Assembly: GCA_963784375.1 (NCBI GenBank)
Contig: CAWAQY010000004.1
Coordinates: 56,825 to 120,824, forward strand
Length of the DNA: 64,000 nucleotides
Reading direction: 5' to 3'
From: an uncultured Chloroflexia bacterium
Lineage (GTDB): Bacteria > Chloroflexota > Dehalococcoidia > GIF9 > UBA5629
The notes beneath the pieces are model-generated. The model made no database searches, was not told where the DNA came from, and was given only the letters and a program-made list of their open reading frames with translations. Numbering within the stretch: position 1 is the first letter of the stretch; every line of letters begins with the position of its first letter. A program made the position numbers and the translations under genes. Shown piece by piece: positions 913 through 50,894 of the stretch.

Positions 913-1302
913 CTATTTCTTCTCCAACATGGCACTAACCTGTTTGAGTAGCGCGTCCGGGCTTACCGGCTTATCAATGTACCCTTCTGCATCAAGCTCA
1001 AATCCGGCGCTGACTGGGATGTTTGTTTCGCCATGGTGCTGCGCAAAGCTGGTCAGGATTATGACCGGGATCTTAGCCAGTTTCGGGTCCTGTTTCAGCT
1101 GTTTGCAGACTTGGAATCCGTCCTTGGTGGGCATGATAATGTCCAGTAGAATGAGGTCGGGTTTTTCCTGCCGGGCTTTTTCCATGCCTGTGTCGCCGTC
1201 AAGGGCTGTAACGACCCTGTACTTGCTCTCAAGTACCTTCTTCGTGGCTTTAACAAAGACCGGATCGTCATCAACGAGAAGGATTTTCGCTGGTTCTGCC
1301 AT
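913..1302 (-). CDS. single-domain response regulator (CheY-like receiver)
   Basis: LLVDDDPVF...DLILLDIIMPTKDGFQVCKQLK has the receiver D-D-K signature. Its stop overlaps the start of the upstream kinase gene at 1302, which suggests translational coupling. Confidence 0.85.
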   Translation of the reverse strand: MAEPAKILLVDDDPVFVKATKKVLESKYRVVTALDGDTGMEKARQEKPDLILLDIIMPTKDGFQVCKQLKQDPKLAKIPVIILTSFAQHHGETNIPVSAGFELDAEGYIDKPVSPDALLKQVSAMLEKK

Positions 1303-2900
1303 TAATTACCTCCATATGCCGTATTTTTTGTAATTGTCGGGCTGGTAGAATTTACAATCCTGTGTCTTCGCAGAGCTTTTTCAACTCTTTGAAGGAGTAC
1401 TGTCGGCGAAATAGGCTTGTTTACATAATCATCAACTTTCAGGTCAGATTGAGTCTCCAACTCGTAACGGCGCCGGCTGCTCTCCTCTCTGATGGCGCTG
1501 AGAATAATGATCGGAAATTTCCGCTCTTTTAGTTCTTCAGACCGTTTGCACACCTCAAACCCGTCCATCTGGGGCATCAGTAGGTCGAGTAGAAGGATGT
1601 CGGGCTCTTTCTCCTTAATTTTCTCCAACGCCTCTTCGCCATTTTGTGCCGTGCGTACTTTGTAGCCTTGCGACTCCAGTAAGACTGAAGTGATACGACG
1701 TATCTCTGGGTCGTCGTCCGTGAGCAGGATATCGGCCCCGACAAAGGTATGCTGGTCCGGTTCGCCGTTCGCCGTTTCGGTCTCCAGCACTTTTGGCAGA
1801 TTGAAGCTGAAGCGGCTGCCTTTGCCGGTGTCAGGATCGGGGCTCTGTACCCAGATGGAGCCCCCGTGGGACTCGATAAGCTTCTTGGCGATGGACAAAC
1901 CCAGGCCAGCGCCTTCGGTCTCTACCCTGATCCCGCGGAAGAAATCGTTGAAGAGTTTTGGCTTGTCCTCCTCGGGAATGCCGATGCCGGTGTCTGCTAC
2001 GTCTATCTGTACCCTGTCCGTTGTCTCCTTCGAGGTGATAGTCACCGAGCCGCCATTTGGTGTGAACTTGACCCCGTTGCTGAGAAGGTTGGTGAGCACC
2101 TGCTGAAGCCGTTTCTGTGCACCGAGCACTGGAGTTAGCTGTTTCGATGCGTTATTCACGAGGGAGACCCCCTTGGGCCGTGCCAGACCAACGACATCAC
2201 CCACCGAGTCCTCGATCACCTGGTAAAGGTTGACCTTCTGCAAATCTGTCGCTTTAATCTCGGCATATGAGATATCGAGGATATTATCGATCATGTTGAG
2301 CAGGTCGGCAATCCGCTCCTTGCCGGCCAGGAGGAGCTCCTTTTGCTCTAGGTTGACTTCCCCGGCAAATCCCCCGGCGACAACTTCAATGGTACTCTGC
2401 GCAGTTGCGAGCGGGGCGCGGAGATCATGTGATGTGACAGAGAGAACATGTCCGAGAGTGTTGACTGTGCGGGAAAGTCGGCTGGAGACCACACGGATGA
2501 CCTCCCGGAAGACTTCGTAGCCGAACTCCTTGTCTTCATCGCATAGTTTGCGGACGGATTCGGCATCAAAGACGAGCACCTGGCTCGTTTCCAGAGCGGT
2601 GCCGGACGCAGGAGCAGGCAGATTGAGAAAAATAGTCCAGCCGATAAAACCATTGTTGCCAACGACATCAATCATGGCCTGTCGTCTCGTTCTGAGGCCT
2701 ATTCTTATCTCTATCTCAAGCGATACTTTTCCGTTGGTTACGATGTAAAAGTTAGGTAGAAGCGTGCCTTCTGTGAAGAGCCGCTGACCGGCGGCGAAGG
2801 TCTGTTCGGTAGCCAGAGTGGCAAGCTTGTCTATCTGCTGGTCAGTCAGGTTCCAGAAAAGCTCGGACTTCTTAATCAGCTCTGTTTTTGACGCAGCCAA
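1302..2900 (-). CDS. hybrid sensor histidine kinase with N-terminal cyclic-nucleotide-binding domain and C-terminal receiver
   Basis: The N-terminus has a cNMP-binding-like fold (FWNLTDQQIDKL...GQRLFTEG...FYIVTNGKV). It is followed by a HisKA H-box (SHDLRAPL), HATPase motifs (DTGIGIPEE...GAGLGLSIAKKLIESHGGSIW) and a receiver (ILLTDDDPEIRR...ILLLDLLMPQMDGFEV). Confidence 0.85.
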   Translation of the reverse strand: MAASKTELIKKSELFWNLTDQQIDKLATLATEQTFAAGQRLFTEGTLLPNFYIVTNGKVSLEIEIRIGLRTRRQAMIDVVGNNGFIGWTIFLNLPAPASGTALETSQVLVFDAESVRKLCDEDKEFGYEVFREVIRVVSSRLSRTVNTLGHVLSVTSHDLRAPLATAQSTIEVVAGGFAGEVNLEQKELLLAGKERIADLLNMIDNILDISYAEIKATDLQKVNLYQVIEDSVGDVVGLARPKGVSLVNNASKQLTPVLGAQKRLQQVLTNLLSNGVKFTPNGGSVTITSKETTDRVQIDVADTGIGIPEEDKPKLFNDFFRGIRVETEGAGLGLSIAKKLIESHGGSIWVQSPDPDTGKGSRFSFNLPKVLETETANGEPDQHTFVGADILLTDDDPEIRRITSVLLESQGYKVRTAQNGEEALEKIKEKEPDILLLDLLMPQMDGFEVCKRSEELKERKFPIIILSAIREESSRRRYELETQSDLKVDDYVNKPISPTVLLQRVEKALRRHRIVNSTSPTITKNTAYGGN

Positions 2901-3326
2901 TTATGCTCTCCTCTGTTCGTTCGGGGGGCTCTGTTCCAACAATAATAGCTTATAATCATTCGGAGCGCAATGAAAAATCCGTGTTTATCCCTTAAGAATG
3001 AATTCTTCGTCAATACGTTCCTCGGAATAACTTTTGGAACAAAGCCGTCGGCAGGTGTATTATCCGAGTTGCATTATAGCACAGGAGCAATTTTCACTAC
3101 AAAAGTCTTCGGTGCAATTTAATTTGATTCAATACGACTAGTTCGAATTCCATTTACGGTAAACACAAAGCTGGTTTTCAATTTGAGGGGTAGTTGATTA
3201 ATTATGAAGATTTGATTTGGTACTTTGAAAAGCCTGATACCTCTATAACAAAAAGGAGTCTGGGATTAAATCCCCAGACTCCTAATAAGGAGGGTTTAGT
3301 GCCGTCTTTGTTCAATATAAACGTAA

Positions 3327-4803
3327 CTATTTTTCCTTCAGTATTTTCAATGCCTTTTGTCTGGATTCCTGGGACCAGCTTTCAAAGTTCAGAATATCTG
3401 GAATATTATTAGGATCAGTCAGATGCCACTCGAATGGGAATCCGGCATCGATTACCACCGATGATCCGCCTTTTTGTTTTGTCACTCTGTCCTCCCATGA
3501 GTTCCTGGGCACGAGAGCCAAAGCTCCACCCCTGTCTTTGATAATCTGGATGCTCCGCTCCGGGTCGCTCCTGGTTGTCAACGCCCAGATAACCTGGTTA
3601 ATATTGGTGGGGTCGACATCATCATCAACGACGATAATCCAGGATGCTGCAGCGGCGATAAGGCAATGCTTATGGCTCCAGATGGCACTGGCGATTATTT
3701 GAGGTAGCCCGGACATTACTCTTTTGGCAGATACAATGCATAGCCCGACGCCGAAAGCGTGCGGGTGGAAAAATAAATCCTTTACACCGGGGATTTTCAA
3801 AGTATCGATCACATGGTTTTTCAGCAGGGCGGTACCGACAGGTGCTCCAGTTTATGCTGTCATCGGTCATCGGTGTTGATTCCATCGAACCGGTGTGTAT
3901 GGGATTATTCCTGTGGGTGATACATTTTACGTGGAATACCGGTTTCGGGAACTCAGCACCTCCGTAATAGCCGGCGGCTTCACCAAAGGGACCCTCCATC
4001 TTTAATTCGTCTGTAGGGACTTCCCCTTCGAGAATTATTTCGGCATTTGCGGGAACCGGGAGATCATTTGTCTCAGCTTTGATCAACTCAACGGGCGCTT
4101 GCCTCAATGCTCCAGCCATCTCAACTTCAGAAACACCTTCATCAAATGGCGAAGCTGATACAATCGGGTGGGTGGGGTCTTGCCCGATCACCACCGCCAG
4201 CGGCATCGGTTTGCCCAGAGCTTTGTATTTCTCATAGAGGATCCAGCTATGTTGTCCCGGAATGACCCACAACCCTGTCGTATTTTTGTCATGAATTCCC
4301 ATTCTATACATGCCCCAGTTGACCCAACCGCTATCCGGGTCTTTCATGATAACCGTATGGAAAGTACCGATATACCTGTGGCCGTCTTTGGCGTGCCATT
4401 TCGGTGTAGGTAGTTTAAAAAGGTCAACATCTTTTCCCTTCAGGATGTTTTCTTTGCAGGGTCCGCTTTTGACAATCACAGGCTTGACCGGATGCTTGGC
4501 ACGCTGGCGCCAGGTCTCGATGATTTCCCGAGCCGGCGTATTTATTGGAAGGCCCAGTGCCAGAGCGTATCTTCGATAGCTGGCTATGGTGTTAGTGAAG
4601 AATCTGCCGCCGGGATATCCGGTTATGTTTTCAAAAATGACTGCCGGAGCATTAATTCCTCCGGTCTCCCTATCAATCAATCTTTTTGAAATTGCCCCTA
4701 TCTCCTCTTCCCAATGTACTTCTTCTTTTATCCGCAGCAGCTCTCCCTCGCTCTCAAGTTTAGCCAGGAATTCCCGCAAATCTTTATACGCCATTAATCT
4801 CAA
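3327..4803 (-). CDS. UbiD-family (prFMN-dependent) decarboxylase; frameshifted near 3810-3860
   Basis: The N-terminus MAYKDLREFLAKLESEGELLRI is the canonical UbiD start, and the body matches UbiD/3-octaprenyl-4-hydroxybenzoate carboxy-lyase throughout. The C-terminal 161 aa continue in another frame (3327-3812). The local repeat tcatcggtcatcggtg at ~3855 could be a small duplication or an error. Confidence 0.8.
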
Positions 4804-4871
4804 TTACTCCATTATATTTTTAATTGCTGATGATCGATTAGAAACCCATGGAGGAACTAAATTTCACCAAT

Positions 4872-6312
4872 TCATTTCAGCGATGGCTCTTTTGCCGCGT
4901 TCTTGCCAGCGGCAAGCCCCTGGGAAGCGGAAGCAGAGGTCATTACCCCCAGTAAGTACGTTTTTGTGCACAGGCCGCCAGTTACTTCCCCGGCAGCATA
5001 GAGTCCCGGAATAGGTTCGGCATATTGGTTTAATACCTGGCCCTTTCCGTTTATCTTTAAGCCGCCTTTCATAGAGGTGGTTGAAGTAACGCATCTCACA
5101 GCGTAATAAGGTCCTTTATCTAATTTGAAAATCGGTGTTGGAATCCCGCCTTTCTGTACCCTTCTGCCAAAGACGGTATCGTAACCCTTTTTATCTATAT
5201 CCGAATTATATTTTTCTATCGTTTTGCTCAGACCTTTGGCATCGATACCGGCAATGTCGGCCAATTTTTCCAGAGTGGTTGCTTTCATTTGCTTGCAACG
5301 TTCCAGGGCAAGCATGAAATCTTTGCCTCCACCTTTGGCATAAGCTTCGCCAGCCGCCAAAATATCTTTCCTGGTTTTATCGCTCCAGATAATAAAGTAA
5401 CCGCCCGATTGTTGCATACCGGCTCCGGTCATGGGCCCATAGAAAGAGTCAGGATACGACTCATCGGCAAACCTTTGCCCTTTAGCGTTTACCATGATCC
5501 CACCGAAATTAAGTGCTCTCAGGGCATTGGAATGGGTTACGGCATCAACCGGCCAGGCCGGTGCAACAGCCTTTCCTATATCCTTTGTGGCAGCACCTAC
5601 AGCCAGCCCCATCTTTAGCCCGTCGCCCATATGGCTTGGAGGCATCACCGGTACGCAATCCACCATGTCAGGGGCGAACTCAGCTACCATTTCAGCATTT
5701 CTGCCAAATCCGCCGCTGGTTATAATTACGGCTTTCCTGGCTTTAAAATATTTAGTCTTGCCGCCCGCGGTAACTATGACTCCAGCCACTTTCCCCGTTT
5801 TGGGGTCCATGATCAAGGCGGGTAGCCCTGTGTTCGTTGAGTATCTCCACACCTTTTCTTCTCGCCCTATCTTCCAGAGCCTTGACTATTTTCAAACCCA
5901 TGTTACCTATTGATAAGGAGCCCAGGCCTCTGGGGACGCTGTGGCCTGGTAGATGAATTACCCCTGGGAATTTTACACCCTCATCCCGGATCATTTTGTA
6001 AACTTCAAGCTGGTTGTCGGCATAAGCTCTGGCTATTTCCGGTTCAGCTCCGCTTACTTCTACCATATCCTTGTAAAGAATTTCGGGTGAATCTTTAATC
6101 CCTTTTGCTTTTTGCTCGTCACTGCCTGCAGTATTGAAACTGCCCCATACCATCCTTAAGCTTCCACCGCACATCTTCCTTACTTCAAGTACAGTCGCGT
6201 TCAATCCTGCCTCGGCAACCTTTATCGAAGCCGGCAGCCCTGCGGTTCCTCCTCCAATGATAATGACATCGGATACGTGGTCCCATTTTTTTGGCATTTC
6301 TGATGCTGACAC
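4872..6312 (-). CDS. FAD-dependent oxidoreductase (fumarate reductase/succinate dehydrogenase flavoprotein-like, FAD_binding_2); frameshifted ~5760-5850
   Basis: The N-terminus has a dinucleotide fold VIIIGGGTAGLPASIKVAEAG..LE. The C-terminal part (4872-5852) carries ...VIITSGGFGRN..., GLYAAGEVTGG. The two ORFs overlap in different frames. Confidence 0.75.
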
Positions 6313-6336
6313 TGATTTTTCCTCCTCTTATTATTT

Positions 6337-6645
6337 TTATTTACTTTTGGAATGAAGCCTTTTCCATTTTTCCAGCAATTGTTTGCGACTCTCTTTGAAA
6401 TCCGGGTCCGGAACAGGGGCTCCTACCGGGCAAATCTCGGCGCACCTGGCCGAATCTCGAAACCCGACACATTCGGTGCATTTTTCAGGGTCGATGACAT
6501 ACGCGTTTTCGCCTTCACTGATTGCTTTGTTGAGGCACTCTACCTGGCACACACCGCACGCTAAACAGTCACTGTTAATTTTGTAAGCCATTGTCTTCTG
6601 GACTCCTCTATTGATTAATCGTTTGATATTTGGAAGAATGTACAA
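6337..6645 (-). CDS. 4Fe-4S dicluster ferredoxin-like protein
   Basis: Two cysteine clusters are present: CLACGVCQVEC and CTECVGFRDSARCAEICP. Confidence 0.7.
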   Translation of the reverse strand: MYILPNIKRLINRGVQKTMAYKINSDCLACGVCQVECLNKAISEGENAYVIDPEKCTECVGFRDSARCAEICPVGAPVPDPDFKESRKQLLEKWKRLHSKSK

Positions 6646-6891
6646 ATATCTGTTTTGTATATTGACAAATAACCAGCGGATTTATTAGTATAGAAATTAC
6701 AGTGAACCTATCTTACGCGATATCGCTTGAGATATGTTGGTCATTTTATAGGAAAAATAAACCGTTTGTCAAGGGTTTTTCGGGGATAAAACTAATAAAT
6801 TTTTCGTTGCCATTTAAGGCATACAATGTAGAAATATGTAACAAATGAACATATAATAGAAACGCTAATTGAGGATATTGAGGACACAAAA

Positions 6892-7402
6892 ATGCCAAAG
6901 AGCGATAAAAACAAGATTGTGAATAAAGAGGCATTTAAACACCGTACATCTCTGGACAAGGACTATGGTTTGTGGGTGCTTTTAAATCAGGCCAGGGATT
7001 CGGTGCACAAGGCACGGGAAAAAGAGTTGATGCAGTACGGTATTTCCAGCAGTCAGGCTGCTGTCATGTTTATTTCGAAGATGATTGATAGTGAAGTAAC
7101 CCCTGGCGAAATATCCAGGTGGCTCTTGAAAGAACCTCACACGGTTTCTGCTATCATTATCCAGGATGGAGAAGCAAGGTCTTGTAAAAAAAATGAAAAG
7201 TAAGGGCAAGAATAATAGCGTTAATATCTCCCTGACCAAAGCGGGAGAGGAAGCGTATATCAATTCCGAAAAAATCCAGTCCCTCAAGGATATAATATCA
7301 AAATTAAATGCAGATGAGATCGAGCAGTTAAGCTCTCTTTTAGCCCGGTTGCGCGACATCGCCATAGACTATACTTCGCGGTTCAGGGTACCTTTCCCAT
7401 AA
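6892..7402 (+). CDS. MarR-family transcriptional regulator (frameshifted ~7150-7170)
   Basis: It is a paralog of the 41855-42352 MarR (…YGISSSQAAVMFI…TPGEISRWLLKEPHTVS // MEKQGLVKK…LTKAGEEAY…LSSLLARLRD). It has two ORF pieces in frames offset by one and is divergent to the UbiD/flavoprotein/ferredoxin genes. Confidence 0.75.
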
Positions 7403-9512: not shown

Positions 9513-10331
9513 TTACCTGACGGGTTTTATTGCTTTAGCGGCGATGAATTGTCCGGTAAGATATCTGGTAGGCTTGTTTTCAAGCCCATCCAATAAACCC
9601 AGTATTTTTCTGGCAAAAATAATAAGTCGGGTAGATTTGAGCCGGCGTACCAATAGTAAAAATGCTCTGACAAAGAAGCGTGGATTATGAATAATTGCCG
9701 TGCAATCAACGACTTTCAAACCCACTGTTACCAGCCCCTTTTTAAGCTCTCTTATACTACAGGTTTCACCGATAAAAAAATGATAGAGCCGCAAAGCTAT
9801 CCAGATCCTGAAAAAAGGCTCGGTTATATTACCCTTATTGTCCATTGTAATAATAAGACAGCCACCGGGTTTGAGAACTCTGCCTAATTCGGATAATGCT
9901 TCCAGGATTTCTTTCTTGTGATGGAAATGATCTAATGTTGAATCGGAAATTATCAGGTCGAAGGATTCATCAACAAATGGCAGCTGCCGGACATCACATG
10001 TCATATAATTAGCCTTTGCCTCCGGAGCGTGATGTGCAGTTGCTGACTTGGCCAGATATGTCACTTTGGTTGAAATATCTATTCCTGTGATAGTGGCGTT
10101 TGTTAGCATTACGTTCCAAAGAAATGATCGAGAAGGGTCAGTAGCTTCGGCAAAAAGATCGGTCTTGAGAATCCTGGTGATTTGATTGTTACCAATCCAT
10201 CTGGATATCAGTTCGGAATGTATGTTTCGGTATTGTTCAGCGAGCAGAGAGTCGAAACCGCTTTCCCCGGCTACTTTCTCCGCGCAAAGGTTCCAGTATT
10301 CTGCTTCAGCTGCCCTGGTTATTTCTTTCAT
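9513..10331 (-). CDS. class I SAM-dependent methyltransferase
   Basis: Rossmann MTase motifs are present: ...ITGIDIS..., FDLIISDSTLDHF and VLKPGGCLIITM. It lies downstream of the radical-SAM gene on the same strand. Confidence 0.7.
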   Translation of the reverse strand: MKEITRAAEAEYWNLCAEKVAGESGFDSLLAEQYRNIHSELISRWIGNNQITRILKTDLFAEATDPSRSFLWNVMLTNATITGIDISTKVTYLAKSATAHHAPEAKANYMTCDVRQLPFVDESFDLIISDSTLDHFHHKKEILEALSELGRVLKPGGCLIITMDNKGNITEPFFRIWIALRLYHFFIGETCSIRELKKGLVTVGLKVVDCTAIIHNPRFFVRAFLLLVRRLKSTRLIIFARKILGLLDGLENKPTRYLTGQFIAAKAIKPVR

Positions 10332-10407
10332 ACTTTTACACGATGACCATCTTAACCAGTATAATCCCCTTCAGACAATTGCTTCTTTTTAAAATATATA
10401 GACTTTC

Positions 10408-11403
10408 TTATAGAGCAGCGAATGAACAATTACTACACGATTCTATTGCTTTATAATTCTTGTTTACTATCAATCGTCTTATTCTGTTGAATTTATCTGA
10501 ATTCCATATTTCCCTCAAAGAAGATTCTTTTGCATTGCCAACAACTGTACTTCTATTCCAGTCGTTGCAGCAAATAATCACATCTCCATTGAAAAGGACG
10601 TTCATCTGGTAGAAAGGCATTTGACACCCTGCCCTGCGTTGAAGAGGTAATACTAAAGATCTACGAAGCCTGGAAAAATATCCTTTCGCATAGTAACCCT
10701 GATTAGACCTGAGGCTATCGTAATTGGGGAGGGTCCCTGCTCTGTTGGTTAGTTCCAGAACCCTGGTGGCGACCCCCATTTTATTCCAAAATCGCACTGC
10801 CTGGTATACCTCGTTCTGATTTTGCTCAGTGAATATAAAGGACAGTATTACTTTTTTTCTCATTTCTTTGTTTGATAAAAGGAAGCTTATGTTTCGCATA
10901 ACCTTCTCATAGTCCAGCCCGCAGTTGATGCGCTCGAACATTTCTTTGGAATATGCATTGAGGCTGACAATCAAACAATCAAGATTTGAGAGTAATATAT
11001 CAGTCAAAGTGAATCGATCCAGTAATTCTCCGTTAGTAACCAGTGTGGCTTCCTTGCCGGGGCTTTTTGATTTAAAGTATTTGATGAACTCAAAAGTCCT
11101 TTTATCGAGGAGTGGCTCATTGTGCAGTTCATACACAATTCCACACAGGAGCTGTTCCGGTATTGCTTCATCAACAATTTTACTGTGAAGATCCCGGGTC
11201 ATTGTCCCATGGACCAGGTTTTTGCTTATGCTATGATAAGGGCAAATTGAACACTGGCCATTGCATCCGGTTAGTGTTTGAATCTGTAATCTTAAAGGAA
11301 AATCCAGGCATTGGCCAGTTCTTTGAAATTTGAAATAAGTCCGGGCCAGGTAAAAATACAAAGGCAAATGCCAATATGCAAATGGATCTTTCTTGATTCT
11401 CAT
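10408..11403 (-). CDS. radical SAM / SPASM-domain protein
   Basis: A CNGQCSIC (CxxxCxxC) motif follows the N-terminal region. A C-terminal Cys-rich SPASM-like segment is present (GDVIICCNDW...CSNCSF). Confidence 0.75.
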   Translation of the reverse strand: MRIKKDPFAYWHLPLYFYLARTYFKFQRTGQCLDFPLRLQIQTLTGCNGQCSICPYHSISKNLVHGTMTRDLHSKIVDEAIPEQLLCGIVYELHNEPLLDKRTFEFIKYFKSKSPGKEATLVTNGELLDRFTLTDILLSNLDCLIVSLNAYSKEMFERINCGLDYEKVMRNISFLLSNKEMRKKVILSFIFTEQNQNEVYQAVRFWNKMGVATRVLELTNRAGTLPNYDSLRSNQGYYAKGYFSRLRRSLVLPLQRRAGCQMPFYQMNVLFNGDVIICCNDWNRSTVVGNAKESSLREIWNSDKFNRIRRLIVNKNYKAIESCSNCSFAAL

Positions 11404-11505
11404 TTTCCAATAGTATATATCTAATTCTGGCAGGGCGCGTATTCAGGCTATGATTGATTATCATGTGCAATGATGCTAGAATCAACGTACTGATAGGAAG
11501 TTACT

Positions 11506-21620: not shown

Positions 21621-21655
21621 CCCGGATTCCAAAATAAACAAAGAGGAGAAAGCAA

Positions 21656-32704: not shown

Positions 32705-32754
32705 CTGATCTTACCCCTTACCATTTTTGAGTTATTATACTCAATTTCTAATGG

Positions 32755-40298: not shown

Positions 40299-41501
40299 TC
40301 AATCACGGACACTTCGCTCCTCGGAAACACTTATGGCTCGCCATCCTGTCTCCTTTATAAAAACAACAGCGACAATGCCCAATAATGCTAACGATGCCCA
40401 AAAGACAAAGGGTAACCCATAGCTGATGTTGGCTAAGCTGTTGCCGAGCGGGGGTGCTCCAAACCCACCTATTTGACAGATGGCAATCACCAATCCTATA
40501 GCTGTTGCGGAATATTTCACCCCTATTTCCTTGTTCTCCAGGCACAAGGTAGTGATTAATGGGGGACCTATACCAAAAACACTCAATATAATAACAATGA
40601 CCCATACCAGTTCATTATGTGTGATGGACAGCAGACCAACGCCGATACCACCCACAGCAAATGCCCCAAAAAGACAAAATTTTCTCGAGCCAATCCTATC
40701 GGATAAAAATGTAAGCGGGATAACCACTAAAGCACTCATACCGCTGTAAATAGCCAGCGTCCCGTCAGCCGCCGCGGCATCCCACCCATTCCCACGTAGA
40801 TAAAGAGGTAGGAACCCGGCCATCCCCTGGACGCAGCCATAATAAGCTAATAGACAAAGTCCAAGCAGCCAGACAGCTTTGATGCGTAAAAGATGTGAAA
40901 ACGCCTGACGGAAAGGAAATGGTTTGACAACATCAGCAGACTTAACTTGAACTGGTTCCTTTACAGTGAGCAGCCAGAGCAAGCTAAATATAATGCTCAC
41001 ACCTCCGTACAGAAACAGCACATTTTCCCAGCCGCCGAGCCACGGTGAGAGGATAGTGGCACTAATGAGCGGACCAAGTGCGAATCCAAGTCCACCACCT
41101 GCTCCCATCAACCCCTGGGCAAGTCCCTGCTGTCGCCATGATACTGACAAGCCGGCAACCACAGTTATAGCAGGTATGCTTGCAGAACTCAGGACGCCCC
41201 ATAAAAAAGTAGTTACCATCAGACTTACAAAGTTGTCTGATAATCCCCTGAGAGCACCCGTTAGTCCTGCCAAAAAACAAAAGAGAACCAGGGTGCGTTT
41301 GACACCCAGCCGATCGCAGAGTAACCCGCCTATCGGCATAATGAATATGCTGCCAAATGAAATCATTCCCCAGACCATTCCTACCTGTACCAGGTCCAAT
41401 CCCAACTCCCCGGATATCTCCTTAAATAAAACAGGCATGCACCTCATCGGCATGTTTACGGCAAATCCAAAAGTGCACGCTGCAGGATAAGTACATACCA
41501 T
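40299..41501 (-). CDS. MFS transporter
   Basis: It is a 400-aa protein with 12 TM segments and MFS motif A-like GGLLCDRLGVKR. Confidence 0.75.
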   Translation of the reverse strand: MVCTYPAACTFGFAVNMPMRCMPVLFKEISGELGLDLVQVGMVWGMISFGSIFIMPIGGLLCDRLGVKRTLVLFCFLAGLTGALRGLSDNFVSLMVTTFLWGVLSSASIPAITVVAGLSVSWRQQGLAQGLMGAGGGLGFALGPLISATILSPWLGGWENVLFLYGGVSIIFSLLWLLTVKEPVQVKSADVVKPFPFRQAFSHLLRIKAVWLLGLCLLAYYGCVQGMAGFLPLYLRGNGWDAAAADGTLAIYSGMSALVVIPLTFLSDRIGSRKFCLFGAFAVGGIGVGLLSITHNELVWVIVIILSVFGIGPPLITTLCLENKEIGVKYSATAIGLVIAICQIGGFGAPPLGNSLANISYGLPFVFWASLALLGIVAVVFIKETGWRAISVSEERSVRD

Positions 41502-41854: not shown

Positions 41855-42352
41855 CTACGGGAAAAACACTGTGTTTCTCTTGGTGAGGGCTTGTAACGCC
41901 TTGCCCCGTATCTTTTCTAATAATGAACTTAGCTGCTGGCGCTCTTTTTCGGAGAGGCAAGACATTAGTTCTCGGATTGACTCTCTTCTCATTGAGTGTT
42001 TATAGGCTTGCTCTCCTTTTTTTGTTAATGCAATGTGTACCTCATTCTTTTTTTTGCCTAAGCCATTAGTCTTACTCACGTAACCTTGTTTTTCCATCCT
42101 GGTCAAAATTTTGGAAACCGAATGCGGTTCTCTTAATATCCACTTCGATATTTCACCAGGTGTAGATTTTCTTTTTAGTTTACTAAGAACCTTAACAATA
42201 AATAGGACCGCAGCCTGCTCAGTTGTAATACCATATTGACTGAGTTCTCTACTCCTCACTCTGAATACTGTGTCTCTCGCCTGGTGAAGTAACCACCAGG
42301 TTTTAAAATACTTATCTTTTGAAAAATAATCTCTCATCTTAACCCTAAACAT
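41855..42352 (-). CDS. MarR-family transcriptional regulator
   Basis: The wHTH is present (YGITTEQAAVLFIV...PGEISKWILREPHSVSKILTRMEKQGYV). It is divergent from the molybdoenzyme gene. Confidence 0.8.
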   Translation of the reverse strand: MFRVKMRDYFSKDKYFKTWWLLHQARDTVFRVRSRELSQYGITTEQAAVLFIVKVLSKLKRKSTPGEISKWILREPHSVSKILTRMEKQGYVSKTNGLGKKKNEVHIALTKKGEQAYKHSMRRESIRELMSCLSEKERQQLSSLLEKIRGKALQALTKRNTVFFP

Positions 42353-42657: not shown

Positions 42658-45413
42658 ATGTCAGACAGAAAAAATGAGTTAAAGGCTCGACCTGAGGCTA
42701 TACCTGCTAAAGGATCAGAATCAGAGGGGGCGGAGAAGACATTCATAAAAGCACTCGGCCTTGGTGGTGTGGTTGGTGGAGGGGCTCCCTGCGCGGTTGA
42801 TGTTAAAGATGGAAAAATAGTCAGGATTAGACCGTTCCATTTTGACTGGAAATATGACAAGAAAGATTTCAATCCCTGGCAGATTAAGGCGCGGGGTAAA
42901 GTTCTTAACGCGATTTTAAAATCACAACCATCCCCTTTCTCCATGGCCTACAAGAAACGAGCTTTTTCTCCCAACAGAATTAAATATCCCTTGAAGAGGG
43001 TTGACTGGGACCCTAACGGCGAGAGAAATACCCAAAACCGTGGCAAGAGTAAATACGTCCGAATTTCGTGGGATGAAGCCACCGATATCGTCGCCAGTGA
43101 GCTAAAGAGAGTGCAAAAAAAATACGGGCCATATGCTGTTATGGCACAAATAGACGGACATGGGGAAAGTAAGTTATTGCATTTTCCTCATGGCTGTCCG
43201 GCATTGCTCCTTAGTAAGATGGGAGGTTTCACCCAGCAGGTAAGACAGCCGGATAGCTGGGAAGGCTGGTACTGGGGAGCAAAACATGTCTGGGGGGAGG
43301 GAAGTGTGGGTATGATGGACCCGGCGGACAATATGATAAATGATATATCGCAGAATAGCGACATGGTACTGTGGTGGGGAGGCGATCCGGAAACAACACA
43401 ATGGGGGATGACCGGGCAGACTGTGAGTCGTACATGCTATTTCTGGTCAGAAATTGGTATAAAACAGGTGTATATTTGCCCTGATCTGAACTACGGAGCC
43501 GCGATCCATGCCGATAAATGGATCCCTATACTGCCTAATACGGATGCTGCTCTGCAACTGGCAATTATATATATCTGGATAAAAGAAGGGACCTACGATA
43601 AGGAATACGTGGAAACACATTCCGTGGGTTTCGACAAAGTTCAAGCATATGTTATGGGTAATGAAGATGGAATTCCCAAAACACCTGAATGGGCATCTCC
43701 CAAATGCGGTGTCCCGGAATGGACAATCAAAGCCCTGGCGAGAGAGTTCGGCTGCCAAAACTACCTCAACGCCCATGCTGCTGGAGGTGGCATGATAAGG
43801 GGGCCATACTCGCATGAACCCTGCAGGTTGGAATGCATTCTACTGGGGATGCAGGGGCTGGGAAAGCCAGGAGTTCACCAGTTCCGAACAACTCAGGGAA
43901 AGCCCAGAGCTGATGTGCCTCATATCTGCTCGTTTACCATATCGCAAGTTCAGGGTGCGGTTGGGAAGAAGGATGACCCAAGAGCAAGATCTTCTTTTCC
44001 AGAGGTATGGTATTACAGCTACGGTTGGGCCGAGTACTAGCGAACCAATAAATCTCCCCATGCTTTCGCGGGTTACTCTCCAGTGCTTCACGAAACAGCA
44101 TATTCCCAAAGACTCTCATCCAGGAGGCGATACTTAATCCGCCTATCAGCTATTGGGGTACCGGAGCAATTATGGATGCAACTGAAGGCCAGTTCGTGAA
44201 ATATAACTATCCGATACCCAAAGAAGAAGGCGGCACAGAAATACACATGATATGGACCGATACCCCATGCAGGACTACCTGCTGGAATTGTGGTAACAAG
44301 ACATTGGAAGCAATGGAAAGCCCCAAGATTGAATGCATTGTCGCCCAGCACCAGTGGCTTGAGAACGATTGCCTGATTGCCGATATAATCCTGCCGGTTA
44401 GTACCACGTTAGAGGTAAATGATATCACGACCAACACCAGGTGGGGTGAGGATATCCAGAGTGCGGGACTTCAAAGGCAAGCCATTGGGCATGTCGGCGA
44501 GTCCTTGAGCGACTATGAGATTGTGCTGGAAATAGCCAAAAAGCTGGGACTTTATGAGGAGGTTTCGGGGGGTAAGTCCGAAGAAGAATGGATTAGGTAC
44601 ATTTTTGATGTACGTTTTAATTTATCAGAGCATCTCAGCTGGGAAGAATTCGAAAAGAAGAGTTACTATCCCTTTCCTACCGCCCCGGATTGGGAAAAGG
44701 ACCCGGCTGGCTTAATAAAGTTCTACAAGGACCCCGAAGCCAATCCCTTACCGACGCCGTCAGGTAAACTGGAGTTCTACTCCGAGAGATTAGCCAGGCA
44801 CTTTCCTGATGATAAGGAGAGGCAGCCCATACCGAAATGGATTGAAAGAGGGGAGACTCATGATGAAAGAATCTCCGGTGAAAGGGCTAAGAAGTATCCA
44901 CTGCTCATGATGTCCAACCACCCAAGGTGGAGAATGCATGCTCAGTGCGATGATATAAGTTGGACGAGGGAAGCCCCAACCTGTAAGGTGAAGGGTCCGG
45001 ATGGTTATATGTATGAGCCTCTCTGGATACACCCCTCAACTGCTGCGAAGAGAGGTATTAAGAATGGAGACATCGTCAATGCTTATAACGAGAGGGGAGG
45101 TGTCCTTTGCGGCGCCTATGTGAGTGAGAGAATAATGCCTGGGGTAGTATCTGTGGACCATGGGGCAAGGTGTGACTGGATAATATACGGAGAGCTTGAT
45201 AGAGGTGGTGCTATTAACCTCATAGCTCCAAATGCTGTAACCTCGAAGAATTGTAACGGACAGGCCACCAGCGGCTTCCTGGTTGAGGTTGAAAAGGTAA
45301 CCCTGGCCCAGATGGAAGAATGGAAGAATCGATATCCGGAAACCTTGAATAGAGAATATCACCCGGCTTCCGGACTACGCTTTAACGCCTGGGTTGAAGG
45401 AGGTATGGAATAA
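42658..45413 (+). CDS. molybdopterin (bis-MGD) oxidoreductase, pyrogallol-phloroglucinol transhydroxylase large-subunit (AthL)-like; at least 3 frameshifts between 43900 and 44170
   Basis: It aligns with Pelobacter acidigallici AthL along the whole length, with no N-terminal Fe-S motif and no Tat signal. Matching segments include WQIKARGK~WKIEARGK, DPNGERNTQNRG~DPNGERNPQLRG, RISWDEATDIVASEL, PDSWEGWYWGAKHVWG, DKEYVETHSVGFDKV...GIPKTPEWA, GMQGLGKPG and the C-terminal NGDIVNAYNERGGV~NGDLIRAYNDRGSV. Confidence 0.75.
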
Positions 45414-45621: not shown

Positions 45622-46359
45622 TTGACAGACTCAAAAGATGAAGATATAAGAATCCGCGCTTCCGCTATTATCGAATTAGGCAAAACGAGGCAGCGAGAAG
45701 CCGTAAGACCATTAACCACCATTCTTGAGGACAAGGACGAGGTTGAATGGATAAGAGCGTGCGCAGCCATCGCCCTGGGAAGAATATCCGGTGATGAAGT
45801 AGTGCCTCCGTTATTACATGCCCTGCGAGAAGACAGCCCGATGGTATGCAGGTGTGCAATTGTGGCTTTGGGTGACACGAAAAACGAGCGAGCGATACAA
45901 CCCCTCAAAGAGATTCTTGAAAATGTCCTTAAGATAGACCTTCATGCCCTGACCATAAAAGTATTGGGGAATATCGGCGGTCCGGAAGTTACTTCACTAT
46001 TAATTCAGGCTTTGGAAAGTGCCAACAGCCAGGTCAGATGTAATGCTGCCTGGGCACTCGGTGAGCTTCGAATCAGGGATGCTGTTATTCCTTTGCTGAA
46101 GCTATTGAAGGATGATGATACGTGTCTGCGGGCAGTTGCCGCCTCTTCGTTAGGTTTGATAGGAGATAAACGAGCCGTCGAGCCATTAATAGAAACCTTA
46201 AGCGATGAGGCTGAGACGGTAAGGACAGTTGTGGTTTCCTCTTTAGGTTATCTTGGCGATAGACAGGCAATCGAACCACTTAATAAAGTTCTTGATGATA
46301 ATAGTCTGCAGGTACGGAGGCAAGTGGTTATATCTTTGGACAAACTCCAGACGGCATGA
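45622..46359 (+). CDS. HEAT-repeat (PBS-lyase-like) protein
   Basis: At least 6 repeats of the A.ALG...AV..L type are present. Confidence 0.7.
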   Translation: MTDSKDEDIRIRASAIIELGKTRQREAVRPLTTILEDKDEVEWIRACAAIALGRISGDEVVPPLLHALREDSPMVCRCAIVALGDTKNERAIQPLKEILENVLKIDLHALTIKVLGNIGGPEVTSLLIQALESANSQVRCNAAWALGELRIRDAVIPLLKLLKDDDTCLRAVAASSLGLIGDKRAVEPLIETLSDEAETVRTVVVSSLGYLGDRQAIEPLNKVLDDNSLQVRRQVVISLDKLQTA

Positions 46360-46432
46360 AAATCGATATCGGTAGACACAATAAATCCAGGATATTTGGC
46401 AATTGCCGAATATCAAAAAAGGAGCACGTATA

Positions 46433-47921
46433 ATGGATGACAGGAAATCGGAACTGGAGATGTTAGTTGGCAAAAAAAATGTTTTCGATGATCGGGAAAT
46501 GTTGGAACGTTATTCCAGGGACAATAGCTTTGCCGCTGCAATGTTGCCGGAGTTTGTGGTAAAACCGATCAATGGGGATACCATTCAGAAAATTGTCAAT
46601 TGGGCTAAAAAAACCAGGACACCTCTGATTCCAGTAAGCTCGGGGCCACCACACTTTCATGGCGGCACGGTCCCCGGCGTTTCCGGGAGTGTCGTCATCG
46701 ACCTCAGTGGAATGAAAAAGATTATTAAAGTTAACCGCCGAAACAGGTTAGCAATAATTGAGCCCGGTGTAACTTATGGCGAGCTACAGCCAGTATTGGC
46801 GAAGGAAAATATGCGGCTTTCTATGCCATTACTTCCACGGGCTAAAAAGTCCGTTATAGCCAGTTTATTGGAGCGCGAACCAAGGTTAAACTGCCGTTAC
46901 CAGTGGTCTTCACTTGATCCCTTGCGCTGTCTTGAAATTGTATGGGGTGATGGAAACAAGTTCTATTCAGGTGGAGTGGGCAGCTATCTATCGGTAGATA
47001 AAGAAGGTGATACAAATTTCGAAGAACAGTTTAAGCAGGAGAAATGGCAGGTAGACCCATCAGGTCCCGCACAAACTGATTTCTACAGGTTCCTTACAGC
47101 GGCCCAGGGGAGCATCGGAATTGCCACCTGGGCATCAGTGAAATGCGAGGTTTTACCCGAAATTCACAAGACTATTCTTTGTACCTGGTAAAAAGCTCGC
47201 TGATCTGATTGATTTCACTTACAAACTGCTCAGGTTCCGATATGCTGATGAGCTTTTTATAGTGAACGGAGTGAACCTGGCATATATGCTTGGGAATACC
47301 CCTGACCAAATCCAGACACTTAAGAAGCAATTTCCACCGTGGATTGCCATAGTCGGGTTAGCTGGCCGGACTGAGCTGCCAGTTGAACGAGTCGAGTTCC
47401 TCGAAAAAGACATCGCTGAAATCGCTAAACAATTCGGCCAAGAATTTGTACAAAAGATACCGGGAGTTGAAAGCTCAAAGGTGTTGGACTCGTTAATAGG
47501 TCAGCCTCGCGAACCTTATTGGAAACAGGGATATAAGGGAGGATGCCAGGATATCTTTTTCATCACCACCCTTGATAAAACGCCCGATTTCTTAAAGACA
47601 ATGTACTCGGTAGCAGAAACTTCAAGTTACCCGACTTCAGATATTGGCGTGTACATACAACCTCGGCATCAGGGTGCAAATTGTCATTGTGAGTTCAACT
47701 TACCTTACGTTCCCGACGAACGCGACGCATCCTCGATTAAGGCTCTCTTCATTAAAGCCAGCCAGGCGCTGTTGGATCAGGATGCATTTTTTACCCGGCC
47801 TTACGGTATCTGGGCTGAAATGGCCTTCAAACGAAATGACCAGAACACCCATTTACTAAAGAAAATAAAGGAAACCTTCGACCCTAACGGAATAATGAAT
47901 CCGGGAAAGTTGTGTTTTTAG
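46433..47921 (+). CDS. FAD-linked oxidase (FAD_binding_4, GlcD/D-lactate dehydrogenase-like); frameshift ~47190-47260
   Basis: The PCMH-type FAD domain is present (VVKPINGDTIQKIVNWAKKTRTPLIPVSSG...). The C-terminal motif FDPNGIMNPGKL is also present. Confidence 0.7.
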
Positions 47922-47973
47922 GTCTTCCTAACAATGTACGTTCCGAAAGTTAAAATCAAAAAGGAGGAATAAA

Positions 47974-49206
47974 ATGGCACTAGAAGATTACCGGGCTGAT
48001 AAGGAAAGATGCAGTCTCTGTTCTTACTGCAAATGGATTCCACAGGATAAGATCAAGAGCTGGAGGTTTGCTAAAGGCTGCCCCAGCATTGCCTACAGCA
48101 ATTTTAATTCTTATTCAGCACGAGGACGTTTTGCTGTTGCCCGTTCACTGCTGGACGGAAAAGCTGAATATACCGATAGAGTGCTGGATATAATTTATAA
48201 AGATTTGAGCTGCGGTTCCTGCGATGTAAGCGACAAGGTGTGCCGATATAACCTGGAGCCGCTGCAAAACATACTGGAACTAAAAGCCAGAGCTGTCATG
48301 GACGGTCAACTTCTGCCTCAGCATATCCCCATCATTGATAATCTCAAGAAAGAAGACACTATGATGCTGGGTATGGTTAAAGAGAAGCGCGGTGAATGGG
48401 CAAATGGTCTGGATGTCAAGGATCTTACTAAAGAGAAAGCTGAGATTGCCTTTTTTGCCGGCTGCCGGTTCAGTTATGACCAGGAGTTGTGGAAAGTGCC
48501 GCGGGCGGCGATAACTCTGTTTAAGAAAGCCGGGGTTGATATCGGGATTATGGGGCGTGATGAAAGCTGCTGTGGCGGCCGAGCTTACCAGATGGGCTAC
48601 CAGGGAGAATTCGTAAAATTTGCCGAAAATAATATCGAAGCCTGGAAAACAGCAGGAATAAAAACTGTTGTCACATCCTGCTCCGATGGCTACTATACCT
48701 TTAAGCGTCTCTATCCCAAGCTGGGCTCTAAAGTTGAAGTGCTGCATACCGTGGAGTTCGTCGAACGCCTCATCAAGCAAGGTAAATTAAAGTTCAAGCG
48801 GCCTGTTCCAATGACGGTAACCTATCATGACCCCTGCCATCTGGGCAGACAGGGAGAGCCATATGTTCCCTGGAACGGCAAGGAAAGGAAAATCTTCAAC
48901 CAGGTGGTGATATATGACCCGCCGAAGCCCAGGTATAATGGGGCCTGGGGAATTTACGACCCGCCCCGAGAAGTGCTTAAGAGCATCCCCGGTCTAAAGC
49001 TGGTGGAGATGGAAAGAATCAGGGAGTATGCCTGGTGCTGCGGTGCCGGTGGCGGTTGTATTGATGCCTATCCTGAGTTTTCCGACTGGACGGCCGGGGA
49101 AAGAATTGAGGAGGCAAAATCAACCGGAGCTGAAGCTATTGTAACCGCCTGTCCCTGGTGCGAACATAGTTTCATCGATGCTGTCAAGCGGATGGCGGGA
49201 AGATGA
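47974..49206 (+). CDS. Fe-S oxidoreductase with two CCG (Cys-rich) domains, HdrD/GlcF-like
   Basis: The N-terminus has CSLCSYC. Two CCG motifs are present (FFAGC...CCGG and YHDPCHLGR...CCGAGGGC). Confidence 0.75.
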   Translation: MALEDYRADKERCSLCSYCKWIPQDKIKSWRFAKGCPSIAYSNFNSYSARGRFAVARSLLDGKAEYTDRVLDIIYKDLSCGSCDVSDKVCRYNLEPLQNILELKARAVMDGQLLPQHIPIIDNLKKEDTMMLGMVKEKRGEWANGLDVKDLTKEKAEIAFFAGCRFSYDQELWKVPRAAITLFKKAGVDIGIMGRDESCCGGRAYQMGYQGEFVKFAENNIEAWKTAGIKTVVTSCSDGYYTFKRLYPKLGSKVEVLHTVEFVERLIKQGKLKFKRPVPMTVTYHDPCHLGRQGEPYVPWNGKERKIFNQVVIYDPPKPRYNGAWGIYDPPREVLKSIPGLKLVEMERIREYAWCCGAGGGCIDAYPEFSDWTAGERIEEAKSTGAEAIVTACPWCEHSFIDAVKRMAGR

Positions 49207-49324
49207 AGGTCTTTGATATTATCGAACTGGTCAGCAGGCGACGAATAGTTAGCAATCCAAAAGATTTGAAGTTTTAGTTTCGAGGTTATAGGATCAAAAC
49301 TTAAAGTGAGAAGAGAAAGGAGAA

Positions 49325-50894
49325 ATGGCTAATTCGAAAGAAATATATCAGGAATTCGAAGCCATCGTAGGACCGGACAACATTTCGGATGATCCCGCCG
49401 TGCTGGACACATATGTGACTCCTATGGCGCAGGCTCAGCATCATATGGGGCCGGTTTATGGTGTAACTACACCCAGAGGATTGGCTATTTTGATGCCCGG
49501 AAGCACAGAAGAAGTCCAGACGATAGTCAAAGTTTGTAACAAATACAAGATAAAATTCCATGCCGCCAGCACATTCTGGACATCACGCGCAAATATTTGT
49601 GATGACAATGCTATTACGCTGGATATGAGACGCATGGACCGGATTCTGGAGATAAATGAGAAGAACCAGTATGCCGTAATCGAGCCTTATGTGATCGGCG
49701 CCACGCTTCAGGCTGAGGCCATGAAGGTTGGTTTGAATACTACTATTATCGGTGCCGGCTCCAGCTGTTCTCCTCTGGCCAGTGCCTGCTCCAACGGCGG
49801 TCCATCGCCCTTTGCCCTATATGGCGGTCTTACCCGCGAGAATCTACTGTCTTTTGAATGGGTAATGCCGAACGGCGAGATTCTGAGGTCGGGGTCTCTG
49901 GGGAAGGGTTGGGCTGGTTTTGTGATGATGGGCCGGGCCTCGGTATTAGAGGACTAATGATGGGACCCAGGGAAGTATGGGAGCTATGGGCGTATTTACC
50001 AAATGCGCGATTAAGCTGTTTCCCTGGCCGGGGCCTGCCGGATTTCCCAGTGACGGAATAATCCCGGCTTATAAAGCCATGCTGCCACCTAATATCGTGG
50101 GACATACATTGGCCTGGCCATCCTGGGAAGCTTATGCCAACGGTCTTTACAGAATCTGGGATAGCGATATCAGCGGTTATTATTCTCACCGGCAATATAA
50201 TATGTTCGGCAGAGACCTCAAAGGGGCCATGATCAAAATCCTGGCCGACCCAACCAAGACACTTAACGACCTCGAGGAGCTGATGAAGGACCCGGAATTA
50301 CGCAGAAAAACAGAGGAGATGAAACGCGATTTTCAGATTATTCTGGCCGGTATGACGCAGAGGGATATCGAATGGCAGGAGAAAGTCCTGGACAAAATAC
50401 TGGCCGAGACCGGGGGCTGGAAAGCATCTCTGATGGAAGAAGCCGGTATTAAAGACTGGAGCCTGCTCTTCTTGCTCAGGTTGGGACATAAGAATTTGAA
50501 TTTTGTTTTTGCCGGCGGCTATGAAGGTTGTTTTGGGATTGGCGGAGTTCCGGATTATTCCTGCCCCAAAGTTGAAATGGCAGGTGAGTTCAAACGGAAA
50601 TGGGAACAGGAACACGACGCTTTCGTGGCGGCTGGAGGAGATTGTATGATGGGCGGTATGGGCGGTATCGGAGGCGGAGGGATAACCGCCTGGGAGAACT
50701 TCACTCATTTTGACTCACACGATGCAAAATCGGTGAAGGAAACACATGAATTTTTTGAAGCTACATCCAAGTTCGGCAAAGAAAACGGACTGGGCGCAAT
50801 GGAGAGAATGTACGCAATATCCAGGCGGGATGACGGCTACGGATTGACTAAAGAAGAGCAGGAGAAAAAGGCATCGGCTTCGGCAAGCCTTTAG
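49325..50894 (+). CDS. FAD-linked oxidase, VAO/PCMH-family-like (approx 520 aa); 2 frameshifts ~49900-49980
   Basis: The FAD_binding_4 domain is present (TPRGLAILMPGSTEEVQTIVKVCNKYKI...). A long C-terminal substrate domain follows. Confidence 0.65.

Follow-up and report, generated by a model that had tools for sequence, protein, structure and literature searches.

A candidate operon of ferredoxin, flavoprotein and UbiD-family decarboxylase in an uncultured Chloroflexota bacterium, and its link to AthL-like molybdoenzymes

What might an uncultured Chloroflexota bacterium do with a UbiD-family decarboxylase, a flavoprotein that resembles fumarate reductase and a small iron–sulphur protein, all encoded in one direction and divergent from a MarR regulator? 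These four genes occupy positions 3327–7402 of a 64,000-nucleotide stretch of contig CAWAQY010000004.1 (assembly GCA_963784375.1), referred to here as the window. The initial annotation of this stretch had suggested that they supply pyrogallol, made from gallate, to a molybdoenzyme resembling the pyrogallol transhydroxylase AthL and encoded elsewhere in the window. Open reading frame (ORF) listing, translation and family searches agree with that annotation in the content, order and orientation of the four genes, and Pfam and NCBIfam matches identify their products as a UbiD protein, a flavoprotein, a 2x[4Fe-4S] ferredoxin and a MarR regulator. The operon is probably part of an undescribed oxygen-free route breaking down plant polyphenol acids, because its counterparts adjoin pyrogallol-transhydroxylase-like molybdenum enzymes in related genomes.

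The proposed tie between this module and the AthL-like molybdoenzyme, 35 kb away in the window, is borne out by a neighbourhood that is conserved in at least five related contigs and absent from 80 control loci. On contig L002, genes for the ferredoxin (71%; here and below, identity to the window protein), the flavoprotein (70%), UbiD (79%) and an AthL-like enzyme (63%/56%) follow one another, with further UbiD and AthL-like genes beyond them; L001 carries, in order, BthL-like and AthL-like (62%/56%) genes, a binding protein, a UbiD paralogue, the flavoprotein (76%), another binding protein and UbiD (81%). An AthL-like gene, a divergent MarR gene (66%), the ferredoxin (77%), the flavoprotein (79%), a major facilitator superfamily (MFS) transporter and a further AthL-like gene stand in this order on L086. 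The molybdoenzyme orthologues that adjoin UbiD or flavoprotein orthologues in L001, L002 and L086 are 56–63% identical to that of the window. Two AthL-like genes, an ATP-binding cassette (ABC) transporter and two tandem flavoproteins (58%) are found in L090, and the contig bearing the closest UbiD orthologue (P0001, 93%) continues with an 899-aa molybdopterin enzyme and an MFS gene, so that MFS genes flank the module both there and in L086. Finally, L088 has, all co-directional, the ferredoxin (68%), the flavoprotein (57%), a different molybdoenzyme and a trio of FAD_binding_4, CCG and FAD_binding_4 genes; this trio is 38–42% identical to the one behind the window molybdoenzyme, and L088 therefore unites both window modules in one cluster.

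The control consisted of 80 GTDB loci with a UbiD gene of 33–45% identity, none of which has the flavoprotein and none a comparable AthL-like neighbour. A scan of GTDB genomes with the single UbiD protein gave no relative, and an alignment-based scan gave only these 33–45% relatives; a metagenome scan with the flavoprotein alignment gave at least five true family members among the matches listed, L090 being the informative one. The ferredoxin–flavoprotein pair, to which the initial annotation had assigned no function, is a more constant partner of the molybdoenzyme than UbiD is, L086 having the pair without UbiD. Further neighbours in the relatives include TRAP/TAXI, Tct, ABC and MFS transporters, together with Amidohydro_2 genes (a family containing resorcylate-type decarboxylases), and as a set these predicted functions point to carboxylated aromatic substrates.

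Two clusters outside the window deserve a description of their own. Positions 15657–21479 of L002 form a large island of AthL-like paralogues (at least three) and UbiD paralogues (three), with a gene resembling that of the phenylphosphate-carboxylase gamma subunit, which suggests that several polyphenol-specific modules exist in parallel as a family. A compact UbiD/AthL-like cluster is also present on a human-gut contig of 57.5% GC (L167, 3619–12019; also L168 and L169), in the order SSF transporter, VdcC-like UbiD, AthL-like alpha subunit, Fer4_11 beta subunit, a UbiD 52% identical to that of the window, and CitMHS transporter. The transporters beside it are predicted to carry carboxylates, and the cluster extends the UbiD/AthL-like adjacency to another phylum. 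It is likely to be a gallate/pyrogallol locus of a gut bacterium; with two UbiD proteins present, of which the other is the more VdcC-like (437 bits), either may be the gallate enzyme.

Membership of the window decarboxylase in the UbiD family is clear from matches to all three Pfam domains (UbiD_N, UbiD and UbiD_C) and from a TIGR00148 score of 304 bits against a cut-off of 244.85. The EGPFGE motif is present, and N159, R164, E223, E267, G268, P269, G271 and E272 are invariant in a 21-sequence alignment of the clade; by their spacing, the catalytic residues presumably correspond to Fdc1 R173/E277/E282. Placement within the family was based on NCBIfam profile cut-offs and on bit scores to relatives of solved structure (PDB). 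The protein scores 302.7 bits (cut-off 650) with the model for VdcC/LpdC-type hydroxyarylic acid decarboxylases (NF041204), 269 bits (cut-off 565) with that for the phenylphosphate carboxylase alpha subunit, 232.8 bits (cut-off 495.9) with the MqnL-type (SCO4490) model TIGR03701, and 185.8 bits (cut-off 788) with the model for ubiquinone UbiD proper (NF008175). Its closest solved relative is the phenazine-1-carboxylate decarboxylase PhdA (276 bits), followed by HudA (229), VdcC (221), Fdc1 (194) and UbiD (166); AroY (5o3m/5ny5), at 118 bits, ranks under PhdA, HudA, VdcC, TtnD, Fdc1, HmfF and UbiD, and the protein is not of AroY type. There is no small ORF for a VdcD-type subunit between the flavoprotein and UbiD genes, nor one after UbiD, where the predicted terminator stands. 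By these comparisons the decarboxylase is assigned to an uncharacterised clade outside every characterised subgroup, be it quinone-pathway, VdcC/LpdC or AroY. A bona fide ubiquinone or menaquinone decarboxylase, the identity that the initial annotation had named as the one at odds with its proposal, was rejected on scores far under both relevant cut-offs; the gallate-to-pyrogallol step that it had proposed is unproven, given the distance from the VdcC/LpdC cut-off and the remoteness from AroY.

The flavoprotein (Pfam FAD_binding_2, E = 5e-60) is closest in sequence, among solved structures, to the fumarate reductase Fcc3 and the urocanate reductase UrdA (~160 bits, ~29% identity), but an identity as either was rejected, the catalytic residues being absent family-wide: when the window protein is aligned with 115 relatives and Fcc3, the four Fcc3 residues that bind and protonate fumarate are seen to be replaced, His365 by a gap, Arg402 by Glu/Asp, His504 by Thr and Arg544 by Tyr. 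The score with TIGR01813, the model for soluble fumarate/urocanate reductases, likewise falls short (249 bits against a cut-off of 285). Tyr452, kept in 114 of 116 relatives, stands 17 residues past the G of GLYAAG, the same spacing as for Tyr487 in the ketosteroid dehydrogenase KstD1 (4c3x), a residue that polarises the steroid 3-keto group. The NCBIfam KstD models give 141–156 bits against cut-offs near 790. An AlphaFold model of the flavoprotein (mean predicted local distance difference test score, pLDDT, 90.5) superposes on delta4-KSTD, KstD1 and cyclohexanone dehydrogenase with template modelling (TM) scores of 0.76–0.78, on Fcc3 with 0.77 and on UrdA with up to 0.85. Judged by the aligned residues, the active site appears KstD-like and not fumarate-reductase-like. 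A maturation role specific to UbiD was also considered for the flavoprotein and rejected, as it is present without UbiD in L086 and L090.

Its presumed electron donor is an Alvin/YfhL-type ferredoxin (NF033683, 99.6 bits against a cut-off of 86) with the cysteine motifs CxxCxxCxxxC and CxxCx8CxxxCP. The best solved relative is 1RGV (80.9 bits), followed by 2FGO, 1BLU and 2ZVS; 1RGV we take to be the ferredoxin of Thauera aromatica. Purified resorcinol reductase is said to be an FAD protein with subunits of ~49.5 kDa, a size close to the 50.7 kDa of the flavoprotein here. The sole defined role of the Alvin-type class is to supply electrons to benzoyl-CoA reductase (BCR), the dearomatising enzyme of T. 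aromatica (PMC2984482), and a dependence on ferredoxin is described for the resorcinol reductase found in fermenting bacteria (PMC10470551, with reference to Kluge, Tschech and Fuchs 1990). Because the fumarate residues are replaced, a tyrosine occupies the KstD position, the ferredoxin is of Alvin type and the pair is reminiscent of resorcinol reductase, we infer a ferredoxin-driven reductase of a phenol or enone, not of a carboxylate enoate.

The molybdoenzyme of the window contains the AhtL-like first domain (PF21423, 43.3 against 27) and matches the large subunit AthL of pyrogallol hydroxytransferase (4v4c) over its full length at 410 bits, compared with ~250 bits for dimethyl sulphoxide (DMSO) and trimethylamine N-oxide (TMAO) reductases. 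His144, Asp174 and the molybdenum ligand Ser175 of AthL are identical both here and in the intact L002 orthologue (500 bits). Behind the gene follow a HEAT-repeat gene and a GlcD/GlcF/GlcE-like trio of FAD_binding_4, CCG and FAD_binding_4 genes; the trio may be the redox partner of AthL-like enzymes that lack a beta subunit.

The boundaries of the ferredoxin–flavoprotein–UbiD unit can be drawn with some precision, and it is predicted to be a single operon delimited by a promoter, a palindrome and a terminator (Table 1). The promoter-like site has 11 of 12 consensus bases and is the top-scoring site of its region; the palindrome is placed between it and the start of the ferredoxin gene, a position suited to repressor binding; and the terminator-like hairpin is immediately 3' of the UbiD stop. 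Directly downstream of the operon, at 1302–2900 (minus strand), lies an intact 532-aa hybrid protein gene with cNMP-binding, HisKA, HATPase and receiver domains, and a cNMP_binding gene is also found near the closest UbiD orthologue, on the P0001 contig.

Table 1. Coordinates of the operon, its predicted signals, the molybdoenzyme module and example split genes (window numbering)
Feature	Position	Strand	Remarks
Intrinsic-terminator-like hairpin	3283..3254	-	12-bp stem, 7 G-C pairs, then T-rich tail
UbiD-family decarboxylase, dependent on prenylated flavin mononucleotide (prFMN)	4794..3327	-	~488 aa; one extra base at ~3841
FAD_binding_2 flavoprotein	6312..4872	-	479 aa, 50.7 kDa; one extra base at ~5815
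Alvin/YfhL-type 2x[4Fe-4S] ferredoxin	6591..6337	-	84 aa, intact
34-bp palindrome, candidate MarR operator	6705-6738		core GCGATATCGC; 18-nt arms, 83% complementary (repeat search)
Promoter-like site of the ferredoxin–flavoprotein–UbiD operon	6772..6743	-	TTGACA-18-TAAAAT; consensus match only
MarR1 regulator	6892..7402	+	~169 aa, divergent from operon; one extra base at ~7157
MFS transporter, downstream of MarR2	40299..41501	-	Pfam MFS_1, E = 1e-38
MarR2 regulator	41855..42352	-	divergent from molybdoenzyme cluster; paralogue of MarR1
AthL-like molybdopterin enzyme	42658..45413	+	Pfam AhtL-like_1st, Molybdopterin, Molydop_binding; two frameshifts
HEAT-repeat protein, FAD_binding_4 (split), CCG-domain Fe-S protein, second FAD_binding_4 (split)	45622..50894	+	Pfam
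Split genes, examples	19310-20699, 21638-22800, 22972-24598, 29415-30838, 31703-33370, 35954-36893		
Split genes, further examples	39332-39553, 42658-45413, 46403-47921, 49325-50894, 55828-56428, 59749-60439		

MarR1 belongs to the MarR family by its Pfam matches (HTH_27, 27.1 against 22.2; MarR_2, 26 against 27) and is predicted to bind DNA and ligand. Its paralogy to MarR2, the regulator beside the molybdoenzyme, stands at 50% identity over 155 aa (E = 7e-50), a value for which 'close', as the two had been called, is an overstatement. The first operator contains a GATATCGC-N4-GATAT core that recurs in the orthologous intergenic region of L086 (3788–3804); the region between MarR2 and the molybdoenzyme has a copy with 2 mismatches, too weak to claim co-regulation, and the operator-like motif shared by the two MarR regions is thus a weak lead only. 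At 42530–42571, a perfect 8-bp inverted repeat, AGTTCCAT-N10-ATGGAACT, abuts the 2-mismatch copy and is a possible MarR2 operator.

Gene identities, operon anatomy, the linkage of the modules in relatives and an active site unlike that of fumarate reductase are the fixed points of a model in which the operon and the module at 40–51 kb form a split system for the oxygen-free breakdown of (poly)hydroxylated aromatic acids. We hold this model tentatively, with a little less than even confidence; its substrates, the order and direction of its steps and its control by MarR are inferred. In the presence of a phenolic effector, the MarR repressor would release the operon, and the prFMN-dependent UbiD enzyme would take CO2 off an imported (poly)hydroxybenzoate to give a polyphenol, gallate being the leading but unproven candidate. 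The AthL-like molybdoenzyme would then move or add a hydroxyl group to yield a meta-hydroxylated ring of the phloroglucinol or resorcinol type, and the FAD_binding_4/CCG complex may serve as its redox partner, an idea prompted by the lack of an adjacent BthL subunit. Fed with low-potential electrons by the Alvin-type ferredoxin, the flavoprotein would reduce the keto tautomer of the ring to a cyclohexanedione-type product, which would be ready for hydrolytic ring opening. A more specific proposal is that the ferredoxin–flavoprotein pair encodes a polyphenol reductase akin to resorcinol reductase, dearomatising its substrate at the expense of ferredoxin. Together with the new UbiD clade and the AthL-like enzymes, the pair would then define a hitherto undescribed anaerobic route of sediment and soil Chloroflexota for polyphenols derived from tannin and lignin, independent of short-chain dehydrogenases/reductases (SDRs); this proposal is unlikely to be correct.

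Several observations weigh against the split-system model. All of its substrate assignments rest on genomic context, and no enzyme of the operon has a characterised close relative, UbiD reaching only 276 bits with PhdA and the flavoprotein being only ~29% identical to Fcc3 and UrdA; the flavoprotein could instead work oxidatively, as a desaturase. UbiD is an optional component, absent from L086, and a 60% relative (L084) stands beside a reductase of the old yellow enzyme (OYE) type without a molybdoenzyme. A tblastn search with an E. coli UbiX query had no match in the window or the syntenic loci, and the same query had strong matches in >20 control loci. In the molybdoenzyme, Arg153 of AthL aligns with Pro (window) or Ala (L002) and Tyr404 with Pro in L002; we assume that both are substrate-pocket residues, and the enzyme may run a different chemistry. 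Pfam scans found no Fer4_11 gene for a BthL-like Fe-S beta subunit in the window, including beside the molybdoenzyme, and no ring-hydrolysis or phloroglucinol-pathway gene (cyclase-family hydrolase, BKACE) in the window. Lastly, three of the four genes are frameshifted as sequenced, a matter taken up below.

Other explanations compete with the split-system model. Taken literally, the proposal of the initial annotation would follow the textbook route of tannin breakdown, gallate decarboxylase then transhydroxylase (PMC10470551): UbiD would act as a gallate decarboxylase that feeds pyrogallol to a true pyrogallol–phloroglucinol transhydroxylase, with flavoprotein and ferredoxin as mere accessories, for example in redox upkeep of the molybdoenzyme or anaerobic prFMN maturation. 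The UbiD clade does adjoin AthL-like genes in Chloroflexota, and in the human-gut contigs a BthL-like beta subunit as well, and AthL is the best solved relative of the molybdoenzyme, with Ser175, Asp174 and His144 conserved; however, Arg153 and Tyr404 are not, UbiD lies outside the VdcC/LpdC family (303 against 650 bits), to which the known gallate decarboxylase of UbiD type belongs, the more VdcC-like UbiD of the gut cluster (437 bits) could be the gallate enzyme there, and the occurrence of the ferredoxin–flavoprotein pair beside AthL-like genes without UbiD in L086 and L090 argues that it is not a UbiD accessory. This literal reading is doubtful. More improbable is a side-chain chemistry, in which UbiD would act like Fdc1 on a hydroxycinnamic-type acid and the flavoprotein would reduce the vinyl group or an enoate in the manner of VprA or enoate reductases: a 60%-identical UbiD in L084 and L085 adjoins an OYE/Pyr_redox_2 gene resembling enoate reductases, Fdc1 is among the solved relatives (194 bits) and there is a weak NCBIfam VprA match (161 bits), but that score is far under the 600-bit cut-off, the flavoprotein has no counterpart of the Arg and His residues responsible for binding an enoate carboxylate, and the repeated AthL-like adjacency would go unexplained. 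Comparably little credence is given to an oxidative function, with the flavoprotein desaturating or aromatising an alicyclic ketone or ketoacid, the ferredoxin as acceptor and UbiD decarboxylating the aromatic acid product. The tyrosine at the KstD1 Tyr487 position, the resemblance of the model to the KstD, delta4-KSTD and cyclohexanone dehydrogenase structures and weak NCBIfam matches to the aromatising desaturases ChcC1/ChcC2 all speak for it, but these scores are far beneath the cut-offs, a very low-potential Alvin-type ferredoxin would be a poor acceptor for desaturation, and the aromatic-acid transporters and AthL-like enzymes of the context point to phenol breakdown.

The frameshifts raise the further question of whether the cluster is still functional. 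The four genes are present where the initial annotation placed them, but three are not intact ORFs, which it did not report: UbiD, flavoprotein and MarR1 are each split into two overlapping ORFs by a single extra base. The positions were found by alignment to intact orthologues, namely the P0001 UbiD (93% identity, 488 aa), which locates the shift at ...NWSTC|GTALL and leaves ORFs of 377 and 161 aa, the P0241 flavoprotein (79%, 480 aa) and the L086 MarR (66%, 165 aa). Were these real mutations, the operon would be a decaying relic, and both the number of genes hit (three of four) and the nature of the shifts, all three being single-base insertions outside homopolymer runs, fit such decay. Yet Pfam scans of the longer ORFs revealed at least 20 frame breaks across the window, about 1 per 3 kb, in two MFS transporters, a thiolase, a histidine phosphatase, argC, a TPR protein, msrA, pyrD, both methylmalonyl-CoA mutase genes, two FAD_binding_4 genes, a TetR regulator and cobS, besides the two in the molybdoenzyme gene; contigs of a related assembly (ERZ25039477) show like splitting in recA, recX and rny; and identity of UbiD to P0001 past the shift (94%) is as high as before it, with no additional stops. 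Because the breaks are window-wide, housekeeping genes included, and identity past the UbiD shift is undiminished, the frameshifts are most probably assembly errors and not decay of the cluster, and a relic operon is correspondingly a very unlikely explanation. The pattern fits an unpolished long-read assembly. Programmed frameshifting was rejected, the shifts being scattered over unrelated genes with no common motif.

Elsewhere in the window, a methylmalonyl-CoA mutase large subunit, B12-binding subunit and epimerase are encoded at 37021–39553 (all named best matches of the mutase being 'Chloroflexi/Chloroflexota bacterium', at 80–82% identity), and 59749–63802 holds the cobalamin salvage or late-synthesis genes CobS, CobT and CobQ with an ABC ATPase; together, mutase and cobalamin genes fit a B12-dependent propionate/succinate metabolism. 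Just upstream of a Rossmann/DUF2520 gene (53559–54497), positions 53449–53528 of the plus strand match the pan motif (Rfam, 37.8 bits; gathering score 36.2), an RNA element typical of Chloroflexi. This candidate cis-regulator, presumably related to pantothenate, agrees with the best matches of the mutase in pointing to a Chloroflexota origin of the DNA. A methyltransferase, a radical-SAM/SPASM enzyme (10408–11442) and a small '4-fold beta flower' protein (11506–11883) stand together at 9513–11883, which may be a peptide-modification locus. A tRNA-Ala (CGC) gene at 39799–39874 falls within the upstream part of an ORF (39726–40139) that encodes a GIY-YIG nuclease domain in its C-terminal half; the actual start of the GIY-YIG gene is probably past the tRNA.

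AthL-like genes were recorded in sediment Chloroflexi in 2013, in a report that does not describe partner enzymes (PMC3971608), and a literature search found no paper naming both 'transhydroxylase' and 'UbiD', nor the partner set in the searchable literature. Carbon storage in peat and in sediments, like polyphenol metabolism in the gut, is influenced by the anaerobic breakdown of polyphenols such as tannins, flavonoids and lignin fragments. To our knowledge, several enzymes of this breakdown have no known gene, and the gene set described here offers clonable candidates for a transhydroxylase-feeding decarboxylase, a ferredoxin-dependent ring reductase and new reaction types of the AthL family. 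If the resorcinol-reductase-like assignment is true, it would give genes to an activity known since 1990; should the assignments be wrong, a well-defined and widely distributed gene cluster has still been delineated.

Among known systems, the Pelobacter acidigallici and Eubacterium oxidoreducens pathway (gallate decarboxylase, AthL/BthL transhydroxylase, NADPH phloroglucinol reductase) has in common with the window a non-oxidative aromatic-acid decarboxylase and an AthL-type molybdoenzyme, here at 410 bits with His144, Asp174 and Ser175 kept. It differs in that the window decarboxylase comes from another, uncharacterised UbiD clade, the molybdoenzyme has no adjacent BthL, does not conserve Arg153 and Tyr404 and is accompanied by a FAD_binding_4/CCG complex and a HEAT protein, the putative reductase is a ferredoxin-linked FAD_binding_2 flavoprotein and not an SDR, and the genes are split over two loci, each predicted to be under MarR control. 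For the resorcylate/resorcinol pathway of the Clostridium co-culture KN245 (resorcylate decarboxylase, resorcinol reductase), we know of no identified genes. Its sequence of hydroxybenzoate decarboxylation and ferredoxin-dependent ring reduction, as given in PMC10470551, would be matched by the window system, although a molybdoenzyme is not known to be involved in KN245.

At the level of single proteins, the window UbiD has the three-domain architecture, the EGPFGE motif and the Arg, Glu and metal-ligand positions of PhdA (7PDA), HudA/PA0254, VdcCD, Fdc1, AroY and UbiD, but differs from these characterised enzymes in scoring below every equivalog cut-off, with a best match of 276 bits (PhdA), and in having neither an adjacent VdcD/PpcC-type small subunit nor a UbiX in the window. 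The flavoprotein has the two-domain FAD_binding_2 fold (TM 0.76–0.85) and the GLYAAGE FAD motif of Fcc3, UrdA, KstD, delta4-(5alpha)-KSTD and cyclohexanone dehydrogenase, and the tyrosine of KstD1 at the Tyr487 position; unlike Fcc3, it is without His365, Arg402, His504 and Arg544, it falls under all NCBIfam cut-offs, and, unlike that group, it has no cytochrome or FMN_bind domain and is paired with a dedicated Alvin-type ferredoxin. Although the putative electron acceptor is here a simple flavoprotein and not an ATP-dependent BCR, with no evident CoA-thioester chemistry, the arrangement recalls that of T. aromatica, in which an Alvin-type 2[4Fe-4S] ferredoxin likewise lies inside a cluster for anaerobic aromatic catabolism; ferredoxins of this class donate electrons to a dearomatising reductase (PMC2984482).

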